Shown here in pieces: positions 47,773 through 52,365 of a stretch of DNA of 64,000 nt (position 1 is its first letter; every line of letters begins with the position of its first letter). A program made the translations under genes and the position numbers. The notes below the pieces were generated by a model. That model had not been told where the DNA came from, made no database searches, and saw only the letters and a list, made by a program, of their open reading frames with translations. Source of the stretch: Escherichia coli (GTDB taxonomy: Bacteria > Pseudomonadota > Gammaproteobacteria > Enterobacterales > Enterobacteriaceae); the NCBI RefSeq assembly GCF_013122565.1, contig NZ_CP053258.1; one strand, written 5' to 3'.

Positions 47773-50448
47773 ATGGCTGTTACTAATGTCGCTGAACTTA
47801 ACGCACTCGTAGAGCGTGTAAAAAAAGCCCAGCGTGAATATGCCAGTTTCACTCAAGAGCAAGTAGACAAAATCTTCCGCGCCGCCGCTCTGGCTGCTGC
47901 AGATGCTCGAATCCCACTCGCGAAAATGGCCGTTGCCGAATCCGGCATGGGTATCGTCGAAGATAAAGTGATCAAAAACCACTTTGCTTCTGAATATATC
48001 TACAACGCCTATAAAGATGAAAAAACCTGTGGTGTTCTGTCTGAAGACGACACTTTTGGTACCATCACTATCGCTGAACCAATCGGTATTATTTGCGGTA
48101 TCGTTCCGACCACTAACCCGACTTCAACTGCTATCTTCAAATCGCTGATCAGCCTGAAGACCCGTAACGCCATTATCTTCTCCCCGCACCCGCGTGCAAA
48201 AGATGCAACCAACAAAGCGGCTGATATCGTTCTGCAGGCTGCTATCGCTGCCGGTGCTCCGAAAGATCTGATCGGCTGGATCGATCAACCTTCTGTTGAA
48301 CTGTCTAACGCACTGATGCACCACCCAGACATCAACCTGATCCTCGCGACTGGTGGTCCGGGCATGGTTAAAGCCGCATACAGCTCCGGTAAACCAGCTA
48401 TCGGCGTAGGCGCGGGTAACACTCCGGTTGTTATCGATGAAACTGCTGATATCAAACGTGCAGTTGCATCTGTACTGATGTCCAAAACCTTCGACAACGG
48501 CGTAATCTGTGCTTCTGAACAGTCTGTTGTTGTTGTTGACTCTGTTTATGACGCAGTACGTGAACGTTTTGCAACCCACGGCGGCTATCTGTTGCAGGGT
48601 AAAGAGCTGAAAGCTGTTCAGGATGTTATCCTGAAAAACGGTGCGCTGAACGCGGCTATCGTTGGTCAGCCAGCCTATAAAATTGCTGAACTGGCAGGCT
48701 TCTCTGTACCAGAAAACACCAAGATTCTGATCGGTGAAGTGACCGTTGTTGATGAAAGCGAACCGTTCGCACATGAAAAACTGTCCCCGACTCTGGCAAT
48801 GTACCGTGCTAAAGATTTCGAAGACGCGGTAGAAAAAGCAGAGAAACTGGTTGCTATGGGTGGTATCGGTCATACCTCTTGCCTGTACACTGACCAGGAT
48901 AACCAACCGGCTCGCGTTTCTTACTTCGGTCAGAAAATGAAAACGGCTCGTATCCTGATTAACACCCCGGCTTCTCAGGGTGGTATCGGTGACCTGTATA
49001 ACTTCAAACTCGCACCTTCCCTGACTCTGGGTTGTGGTTCTTGGGGTGGTAACTCCATCTCTGAAAACGTTGGTCCGAAACACCTGATCAACAAGAAAAC
49101 CGTTGCTAAGCGAGCTGAAAACATGTTGTGGCACAAACTTCCGAAATCTATCTACTTCCGCCGTGGCTCCCTGCCAATCGCGCTGGATGAAGTGATTACT
49201 GATGGCCACAAACGTGCGCTCATCGTGACTGACCGCTTCCTGTTCAACAATGGTTATGCTGATCAGATCACTTCCGTACTGAAAGCAGCAGGCGTTGAAA
49301 CTGAAGTCTTCTTCGAAGTAGAAGCGGACCCGACCCTGAGCATCGTTCGTAAAGGTGCAGAACTGGCAAACTCCTTCAAACCAGACGTGATTATCGCGCT
49401 GGGTGGTGGTTCCCCGATGGACGCCGCGAAGATCATGTGGGTTATGTACGAACATCCGGAAACTCACTTCGAAGAGCTGGCGCTGCGCTTTATGGATATC
49501 CGTAAACGTATCTACAAGTTCCCGAAAATGGGCGTGAAAGCGAAAATGATCGCTGTCACCACCACTTCTGGTACAGGTTCTGAAGTCACTCCGTTTGCGG
49601 TTGTAACTGACGACGCTACTGGTCAGAAATATCCGCTGGCAGACTATGCGCTGACTCCGGATATGGCGATTGTCGACGCCAACCTGGTTATGGACATGCC
49701 GAAGTCCCTGTGTGCTTTCGGTGGTCTGGACGCAGTAACTCACGCCATGGAAGCTTATGTTTCTGTACTGGCATCTGAGTTCTCTGATGGTCAGGCTCTG
49801 CAGGCACTGAAACTGCTGAAAGAATATCTGCCAGCGTCCTACCACGAAGGGTCTAAAAATCCGGTAGCGCGTGAACGTGTTCACAGTGCAGCGACTATCG
49901 CGGGTATCGCGTTTGCGAACGCCTTCCTGGGTGTATGTCACTCAATGGCGCACAAACTGGGTTCCCAGTTCCATATTCCGCACGGTCTGGCAAACGCCCT
50001 GCTGATTTGTAACGTTATTCGCTACAACGCGAACGACAACCCGACCAAGCAGACTGCATTCAGCCAGTATGACCGTCCGCAGGCTCGCCGTCGTTATGCT
50101 GAAATTGCTGACCACCTGGGTCTGAGCGCACCGGGCGACCGTACTGCTGCTAAGATCGAGAAACTGCTGGCATGGCTGGAAACGCTGAAAGCTGAACTGG
50201 GTATTCCGAAATCTATCCGTGAAGCTGGCGTTCAGGAAGCAGACTTCCTGGCGAATGTGGATAAACTGTCTGAAGATGCATTCGATGACCAGTGCACTGG
50301 CGCTAACCCGCGTTACCCGCTGATCTCCGAGCTGAAACAGATTCTGCTGGATACCTACTACGGTCGTGATTATGTAGAAGGCGAAACTGCAGCGAAGAAA
50401 GAAGCTGCTCCGGCTAAAGCTGAGAAAAAAGCGAAAAAATCCGCTTAA
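47773..50448 (+). CDS. adhE: Bifunctional acetaldehyde-CoA / alcohol dehydrogenase
   Basis: 891 aa; N-terminal aldehyde dehydrogenase half, C-terminal Fe-alcohol dehydrogenase half, Lys/Ala-rich tail. Confidence 0.97.
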
Positions 50449-50571
50449 TCAGTAACGCTGTCTGGCAACATAAACGGCCACTTCTGGGCAATGCCGATCA
50501 GTTAAGGATTAGTTGACCGATCCTTAAACTGCGGCACTATAACGGCTTCCACAACAGGGAGCCGTTTTCTT

Positions 50572-51468
50572 ATGCCACTTCTCAATGATCTGCTCGATTT
50601 CAGTGACCATCCGCTTATGCCTCCGCCCTCTGCACAACTGTTTGCAGAACACCTTCCCACCGAGTGGATACAACACTGCCTGACGCTTTCTGCTCATGCG
50701 ACCGTTCGCCGCCGTCGTTTACCGGGGGACATGGTTATCTGGATGGTGGTGCAATGAGCCAATTACCGATGTTGTTCGCCGTCTGAACCTGAGCGCGGAT
50801 GGCGAAGCGGGGATGAACCTGCTGGTCCGCAGCGCTGTCACCCAGGCGCGTCAGCGCGTGGGGGCCGCCCCGGTGGAATGGCTCTTCCGCCAGACCGCAC
50901 AGACAGGGGCGCGGAACGTTACCTGAAGGATGACTGGCACGGCCTGCAACTTTTTGCCATTGATGGCGCACAGTTCAGGACACCTGATGAACCCGAGCTG
51001 CGTGAATATTATGGGTCTGCCAACACATCCACTAAGCGGCAGAGCGCCTACCCGGTTATGCGTCTGGTGGCCTTAATGAACCTGGGAAGTCACATTCTGC
51101 TGAATGCCGTGACCGCACCTTACCGGCAGAGCGAAACTGTGCTGGCCCACTCCATGCTCGCCACCATCCCGGATAACTCTATTACGTTGTTTGATAAGCT
51201 TTTTTACAGCGAAGACCTGCTGCTGACGCTGAACCAGAAGGGTTGTAACCGCCACTGGCTACTGCCTGCGTGGAAGAATATCGCATCAGAAATGATAGTG
51301 CTGGGAAACACGGCGTCACCAGGGACCATCCCGAAACGACTGGAGCATCTTCGGGGTGCTCTGGAAGTGGTGTTCATAACAAAACGCCCCCGACCATCAA
51401 GGCCGAGGGCGGTTAAGATATCAAAAACCCGTTATCCTGTGAAACATAGTGCCGCTCCTCTTAAGTGA
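50572..51468 (+). pseudogene. insZ: Degraded IS4-family transposase remnant (insZ-like)
   Basis: Three consecutive plus-strand ORFs of 61, 76 and 196 aa in different frames read as one interrupted transposase-like sequence; no flanking inverted repeats noticed. Confidence 0.65.
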
Positions 51469-51747
51469 ACGGCATTGCCCTTCTGGGACCGTTTTTTGTT
51501 TACCCAAAGCAACTTTTCCATAAACCGACAGCATTAGCCTTCATCATATTTGCGACGATGTATAACGCCTACACACAGCGATATTGTACTTTACAGGTCA
51601 CAAGTCAATGTCGGTGTATAAGCGCTCTGGGAGGCGTATAGCGGCGTTAAAAAACTGCCGAGAAGGGTGTATAGCCCGGAAGAAGTGCGTAAAACGAACT
51701 GACAGGATAAAAGCGCCCTGCTCACCCTGTCAGTAAAAAAATTCTTA

Positions 51748-52365
51748 TTAATCGTGGCGATGCCTTTCCTGAATAGCCGTTAATGAGCCGACTTCTAACG
51801 CCTCTTTATAGTGTTTACGGCATACAGAAACGTAGCGTTCATTACCACCAATAACCACCTGCTCACCTTCGTTATAAGGTCTGCCTGCTTGATCAAGACG
51901 CAGCACCATGCTTGCTTTACGGCCACAAAAACAGATGGTTTTTAATTCAACCAGTTTGTCGGACCATGCCAGTAAGTATTGGCTGCCAATAAATAATTCA
52001 CCTCGAAAATCGGTACGTAAACCATAACAAAGTACGGGTATATCGAGTTGATCGACAACCTCCGATAATTCATATACTTGTTGTCTGGTTAAAAACTGGC
52101 ATTCATCAACCAGTACGCAATGAATTGCCTGCTGTTCATGTTCCGCACGAATCTCATCAAATAATGATGAATTTTGGTTAAATAATTTTGCAGGCGATGA
52201 CAAACCTATACGCGAGCTGACTTTCCCGGCACCAAAGCGATCATCAATTTCTGCCGTATATACGACAGTGCTCATGCCGCGTTCCTGGTAATTGTATGAA
52301 GATTGCAACAATGCTGTAGACTTACCCGCATTCATTGCGGAATAGTAGAAATATAGCTGTGCCAT
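51748..52365 (-). CDS. tdk: Thymidine kinase
   Basis: 205 aa; P-loop [10 protein letters not shown]; C-terminal zinc-binding Cys pairs. Confidence 0.93.

Follow-up and report, generated by a model that had tools for sequence, protein, structure and literature searches.

The interrupted transposase-like sequence between adhE and tdk in the analysed DNA of E. coli (one stretch of 64,000 nucleotides, hereafter the window) is the already-annotated ISZ'/insZ pseudogene of this species and as such a known and ordinary feature. According to the account preferred here, to which a probability of about 0.95 is assigned, a 1430-bp insertion sequence (IS) of the IS4 subgroup would have been placed at the apex of the adhE terminator by a single transposition event, in a strain ancestral to part of today's E. 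coli, with a staggered cut of 10 bp positioned symmetrically about the dyad of the hairpin AAACGGCCCC-TTCT-GGGGCCGTTTTTTT. Subsequently, two small losses from the inserted copy, of 17 bp and 1 bp, would each have shifted the reading frame, and a third, of 423 bp, would have occurred in frame between short direct repeats and taken away the YREK motif along with the catalytic glutamate. The outcome would be the 989-bp element ISZ' with the insZ pseudogene, which retains both terminal inverted repeats and encodes no active transposase, and which would since have been passed down as a fixed marker on the chromosome.

ISZ' is flanked in the window by adhE (47773-50448, plus strand) and tdk (51748-52365, minus strand). 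The insZ pseudogene (50572-51468, plus strand) comprises three open reading frames (ORFs) on the same strand, of which ORF1 (50572-50757) matches positions 4-43 of the Pfam model Nterm_IS4 (E = 3.7e-11), ORF2 (50696-50926) positions 48-95 of the same model (E = 1.6e-11), and ORF3 (50878-51468) positions 2-116 of the 200 positions of DDE_Tnp_1 (E = 1.6e-8). These matches are collinear and represent successive parts of a single protein, and the IS4-family model transpos_IS4_1 of NCBIfam agrees with them. When joined, the ORFs match an intact IS4-family transposase of E. coli with 445 amino acids (P0001) with an E value of 1.4e-175 and an identity of 93%. An interrupted transposase between adhE and tdk, as proposed in the preliminary description of this DNA, is thus confirmed by the domain matches as well as by the similarity of the joined fragments to an intact transposase. 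The ORFs had also been described as lying in different frames. This is correct insofar as the gene is frameshifted, after 50750 by a 17-bp deletion and after 50905 by a 1-bp deletion, but only two reading frames are used, with ORF1 and ORF3 in a common frame because the two deletions sum to 18 bp. Across its full length (1-64000), the window runs collinear with the E. coli chromosome (acnA, topA, trp, opp, adhE, tdk, hns, galU, rssB, and narGH). The most similar of 5426 complete genomes of this species reach only 98.5-98.8% identity, so that close relatives of the source lineage are not represented in that collection.

At the orthologous position, the genome of K-12 MG1655 contains a mobile element annotated as 'ISZ' (1294426..1295405) and the pseudogene insZ (b4573, formerly ychG), whose 897 bp equal the length of window positions 50572-51468. 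ISZ'/insZ is listed among the IS elements of K-12 (PMC3032704), and the 1.3-kb adhE-tdk spacer also matches other E. coli chromosomes that carry the annotation 'IS4 family transposase; frameshifted; internal stop; incomplete'. The elements of the window and of K-12 align over 989 of 989 nucleotides with nine mismatches and no gaps (99.1% identity) and therefore share a common insertion and common lesions, namely two frameshifts and the 423-bp deletion. By both its site and its lesions, the window element is orthologous to ISZ'/insZ of K-12. Besides these nine point differences, single substitutions in the window affect the left copy of the target-site duplication (TSD) and a position just past the right copy. 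For five of six differences that were checked by reading the alignment by eye, the window has the base of the intact parent element and K-12 the changed one. The spacer to the right of the element (51478-51747) is 94.9% identical to K-12 (12 mismatches in 270 nucleotides), compared to 99.0-99.4% for adhE, the IS, and tdk, and K-12 is the outlier at most of the differing spacer positions according to a by-eye reading of the four-way alignment described below.

The boundaries of ISZ' were determined by aligning the window with K-12, LI60C3, and Nissle 1917, where LI60C3 with its uninterrupted adhE-tdk spacer of 302 bp served as the empty-site reference. This four-way alignment places the whole element at window positions 50489-51477 (plus strand, 989 bp). 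The left terminal inverted repeat (IRL; 50489-50506, plus strand) reads CAATGCCGATCAGTTAAG and the right one (IRR; 51460-51477, minus strand) reads CAATGCCGTTCACTTAAG in reverse complement. Both are part of the longest inverted repeat of the region, the top pair (I1) reported by the repeat finder, and match each other at 16 of 18 positions, with both mismatches also occurring in the intact parent. The first 21 nucleotides of ISZ' are identical to the parent (L005:2918 onward), and IRR is identical to the right end of the parent. With AATG at positions 2-5 and TTA at positions 14-16, the terminal repeats carry the end signature of the IS4 subgroup, -AATR--------WTW (De Palmenaer et al., 2008; PMC2266710). 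A subterminal palindrome located just inside IRL (50503-50528, plus strand) is recognizable in the sequences of both window and parent and folds as a hairpin; it is perfect in the parent (TTAAGGATCGGT-TG-ACCGATCCTTAA) and has two mismatches in the window. The stop codon of insZ falls within IRR. It is at this stop codon that the 'ISZ' feature of K-12 (L004:1927-2906, corresponding to NC_000913.3 1294426..1295405) ends, so that the annotated feature omits the last 9 bp of IRR and its true end would be 1294417.

The element is bordered by a 10-bp TSD, whose left copy (50479-50488, CACTTCTGGG) and right copy (51478-51487, CCCTTCTGGG) agree at nine of 10 positions in the window, whereas K-12 has CCCTTCTGGG on both sides (10/10). 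The mismatch in the window is a single C>A substitution at position 50480 relative to K-12. The preliminary description had reported neither terminal inverted repeats nor TSDs. Both exist, the 18-bp repeats being well preserved, and the search for residual inverted repeats by alignment with the parent, which it had suggested as a check, recovered both ends in a form identical to those of the parent. Its characterization of the region as an old immobile remnant is appropriate for an IS4-family frameshifted pseudogene without autonomous transposition, but not in the sense of a ragged fragment, as both ends are in place. Likewise, the locus is more than a former insertion site, since the whole element is still there with both ends kept and is inactivated by three internal deletions. 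The record for the window is hence corrected from an end-less scrap to an element with complete ends, inverted repeats, and a TSD.

The intact parent (L005:2918-4347, 1430 bp) lies between gnd and ugd and has inverted repeats as in ISZ' and an 11-bp TSD. In a global alignment, ISZ' and the parent share 94.5% nucleotide identity over the common 986 nucleotides and have exactly three length differences, all of which are deletions in ISZ': the 17-bp and 1-bp deletions mentioned above, and a 423-bp deletion after about position 51278. The junction of this in-frame deletion, as located by the alignment with the parent, spans 51265-51292 (plus strand), and the deleted segment is flanked in the parent by the imperfect direct repeats TATCGCGGCAGAAA and TATCGCGACAGAAA. 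An exact-pattern scan of the GTDB representative genomes for the junction gave no matches. The deletion is the main inactivating lesion of ISZ' and had been overlooked in the earlier reading. It takes out parent residues ~246-386. The parental transposase P0001 contains complete Nterm_IS4 and DDE_Tnp_1 domains, the catalytic triad D137, D214, and E318, and at residues 311-325 the YREK motif YHSRWEIEVGFRNLK, the family motif being Y-(2)-R-(3)-E-(6)-K (PMC2266710). E318 and the YREK motif are thus lost from insZ, and D137 and D214 are kept in its repaired frame. Putting back 18 parent bases yields a single open frame of 304 codons with 94.7% identity to the parent. Of the 5426 complete E. coli genomes, 162 contain full-length copies of the parent, many of these copies being plasmid-borne. 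A database label for a frameshifted Salmonella relative (P0025) reads 'ISCro3 transposase' (one source).

The intact 1430-bp element (transposase P0001, WP_029488891-like) resembles ISZ' in its terminal inverted repeats, its subterminal palindrome, and a hairpin that sequesters the Shine-Dalgarno (SD) sequence, and its TSDs of 10-11 bp lie at hairpin apexes. Unlike ISZ', which lacks 17 + 1 + 423 bp, it has one open ORF of 445 codons. Elements of the IS4 subgroup have direct repeats of 10-13 bp, a size of 1400-1650 bp, and a marked target-arm specificity (PMC2266710). The ORF domains of insZ, and in full those of P0001, identify a single-ORF DDE transposase of this subgroup with both domains. 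The complete DDE triad with YREK is present in P0001 and deleted from the window copy, so the lineage has these hallmarks and the window copy is a dead derivative. The TSD is also within the range of the subgroup (10 bp here and 10-11 bp in the other copies of the lineage), and the size is within it for the parent but not for ISZ', which measures 989 bp after its internal deletions. With two frameshifts, the loss of the catalytic glutamate, and one site for the deleted form, ISZ' does not qualify as an active autonomous IS.

One could ask whether the interrupted frame is nevertheless functional, either because programmed frameshifting allows its expression or because a truncated product has been domesticated, for example a DNA-binding N-terminal fragment that serves as a regulator or inhibits transposition. 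Indeed, insZ still has the Nterm_IS4 region and both catalytic aspartates, and the allele is kept in 35% of the E. coli genomes. However, the changes of frame are plain deletions of 17 bp and 1 bp without slippery-site signals, the intact relatives have one uninterrupted ORF, and the absence of frameshifting is a defining property of the IS4 family (PMC2266710). Moreover, about five of the 7-8 differences between the ORFs of the window and K-12 are non-synonymous and thus give no sign of purifying selection, although this by-eye count is a very small sample. Programmed frameshifting and domestication of insZ were rejected based on the plain deletions and the single-ORF relatives, and a functional frame is regarded as extremely improbable.

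As judged from its sequence, ISZ' is incapable of autonomous transposition. The identity of IRL and IRR with the ends of the intact element, together with the presence of full-length copies with an open 445-aa ORF on plasmids and chromosomes of E. coli in 162/5426 genomes, could suggest that it is a non-autonomous MITE-like element that a full-length copy of its IS mobilizes in trans. However, the junction of the 423-bp deletion occurs in exactly 1883 of 5426 genomes, which is the number of genomes with the adhE-ISZ'-tdk arrangement. ISZ' is present as a single copy per genome, and neither a second nor a plasmid-borne copy of the junction was found among the matches inspected (a sample of rows). 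The deleted form thus gives no indication of ever having transposed, its intact ends notwithstanding. In addition, a preference for action in cis is established for IS4-family transposases such as those of IS10 and IS50. Mobilization in trans is consequently considered very unlikely, and inheritance of ISZ' at a fixed chromosomal position remains the favoured explanation.

The target of the insertion can be reconstructed from the empty site, where the sequence AAACGGCCCC-TTCT-GGGGCCGTTTTTTT directly follows the adhE stop codon and folds into a hairpin with a 10-bp GC-rich stem, followed by U7. By this arrangement and position, the structure is the intrinsic terminator of adhE. The TSD of ISZ' is centred on the apex of this hairpin, and the insertion has split the terminator, as revealed by the empty-site and K-12 alignment, the flanking sequences, and folding. 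The left half, including the left TSD copy, is located at 50472-50488 (plus strand), and the right TSD copy followed by the right half of the stem and the T-run at 51478-51498 (plus strand). According to the predicted folds, no stable hairpin is left at either ISZ' junction in the window. About 50 nucleotides inside the element, a terminator-like hairpin was detected by a terminator scan (about 50541-50575, plus strand; fold z = -5.9). It consists of a 10-bp stem (AACGGCUUCC/GGGAGCCGUU; 50541-50566) followed by UUUUCUU, and in the predicted fold it reaches the ATG of the transposase gene and sequesters the SD sequence GGGAG. We infer that this hairpin may guard the IS against transcription from outside, and that transcripts reading through from adhE now probably end at this structure (50541-50573). 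An RNA gene at this position was considered and rejected, as the match to the Rfam model ctRNA_p42d reached 33.4 bits where the gathering score is 50, which reflects a generic likeness to terminator hairpins; the Rfam scan of 50300-51900 yielded nothing beyond this sub-threshold match. The right end of the element contains another strong, inward-facing hairpin on the minus strand (51385-51411; 11 pairs, nine of them GC) followed by a T-run, which could stop transcripts arriving from the direction of tdk or may simply be a chance feature of the coding sequence.

The adhE-tdk site occurs in three allelic states among the 5426 complete genomes. It is empty in 2180 genomes (40%), contains ISZ' in 1883 (35%), and contains a deleted copy of IS4 proper in 1033 (19%); no allele was assigned to the remaining about 330 genomes. 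The deleted IS4 is found in Nissle 1917 (L002:2874-4018) and in the type strain ATCC 11775 (L022:1436-2580), at the ISZ' site and in the same orientation as ISZ'. It is 97-98% identical to insG and was shortened from 1426 to 1145 bp by a 281-bp internal deletion. Its 12-bp TSD (CCCCTTCTGGGG) is perfect in ATCC 11775. In the sublineage of Nissle 1917 (about 194 records), by contrast, the left copy reads CCCCAGAAGGGG and the right copy CCCCTTCTGGGG (L002:2862-2873 compared to L002:4019-4030), the 4-nt hairpin loop being inverted to AGAA. The idea that the empty site originally had AGAA as its loop was rejected as the cause of this mismatch: AGAA is absent from all 2180 empty sites, and the TSD of ATCC 11775 is perfect, which therefore points to a secondary 4-nt inversion of the loop of a palindrome in the sublineage.

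Sequence comparison indicates that the deleted IS4 at adhE-tdk is an insertion event independent of ISZ'. IS4 proper (insG, 1426 bp), the prototype of the family, belongs to the same subgroup as the ISZ' lineage, shares its A-tract/GC-palindrome/T-tract targets, and has similar ends (TAATGCC.ATCAGTTAAGG in IS4, CAATGCCGATCAGTTAAGG in ISZ'), but its transposase is only 38% identical to that of the lineage (InsG compared to P0001), and its TSD has 12 bp instead of 10-11 bp. That the two occupants are instead diverged forms of one ancient insertion might be argued from their identical site and orientation, the similarity of their left ends over the first ~35 nucleotides, and the internal deletions that both have in the YREK region. 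This reading is effectively refuted by the contrast between 38% identity of the transposases and about 99% identity of the flanking genes. It is also at odds with the 97-98% identity of the second element to IS4 proper, the different TSD lengths (10 bp and 12 bp), and the 2180 genomes in which the site is still empty. Its probability is accordingly put close to nil. Both occupants of the site have an internal deletion, which in ISZ' comprises 423 bp including the YREK/glutamate region and in IS4 281 bp; a by-eye reading of the alignment suggests that the latter likewise removes the YREK motif. These parallel losses may be a coincidence or reflect a common route of decay. Another degraded copy of the ISZ' lineage, about 95% identical, was found at an unrelated locus in E. 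coli O157:H7 strains (near nanM in NE1127, L021:1520-2215), where it is annotated as 'transposase domain-containing protein, frameshifted'. The adhE-tdk site of O157:H7 is empty.

To place the adhE terminator among other targets of the subgroup, four more independent sites of the ISZ lineage were reconstructed (gnd-ugd, a T6SS plasmid, the leading region of the F plasmid, and ypjA-ssrA), as were two sites of intact IS4 proper (within fiu and at the crr-pdxK terminator). Together with the deleted IS4 at adhE-tdk in ATCC 11775 as the third IS4-proper site, this amounts to five ISZ-lineage and three IS4-proper sites. At all of them, the TSD (10-12 bp) lies symmetrically about a GC-rich palindrome, mostly with an A-run on one side and a T-run on the other. 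Relative to length-matched random windows, five of seven centred reconstructed sites ranked in the lowest 2% of folding energies. Two of the five ISZ-lineage targets are weak hairpins (MFE percentiles of 0.07 and 0.23 relative to random windows). IS4 itself was reportedly observed in the pheST attenuator, in work attributed to Klaer et al. in 1981 and Mayaux et al. in 1984, with AAA-N20-TTT said to be its consensus. The adhE terminator was presumably picked because transposases of the IS4 subgroup favour targets with an A-tract, a GC-rich palindrome, and a T-tract.

With ISZ'/insZ having been part of the K-12 annotation for two decades, the element is of little importance in itself, and for K-12 the analysis adds that the annotated 'ISZ' feature leaves off the final 9 bp of the right inverted repeat. 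Of most interest among the by-products is that the adhE terminator has been hit at its apex more than once, by two different elements of the IS4 subgroup. The chances are about even that this terminator is a natural hot spot of the IS4 subgroup, whose transposases would recognize a geometry like that of bidirectional terminators (A-tract, GC-rich palindrome, T-tract) and cut symmetrically at the apex, and that the 3' ends of adhE transcripts may differ by phylogroup. If true, both occupied alleles would destroy the native adhE terminator, and in ISZ' the SD-sequestering hairpin would be placed to replace it. The alleles of the adhE-tdk site furthermore offer a convenient three-state phylogenetic marker, and ISZ' and IS4 at the adhE terminator represent a natural case for studying how terminator-like palindromes are chosen as targets and how the 3' end of adhE is formed.
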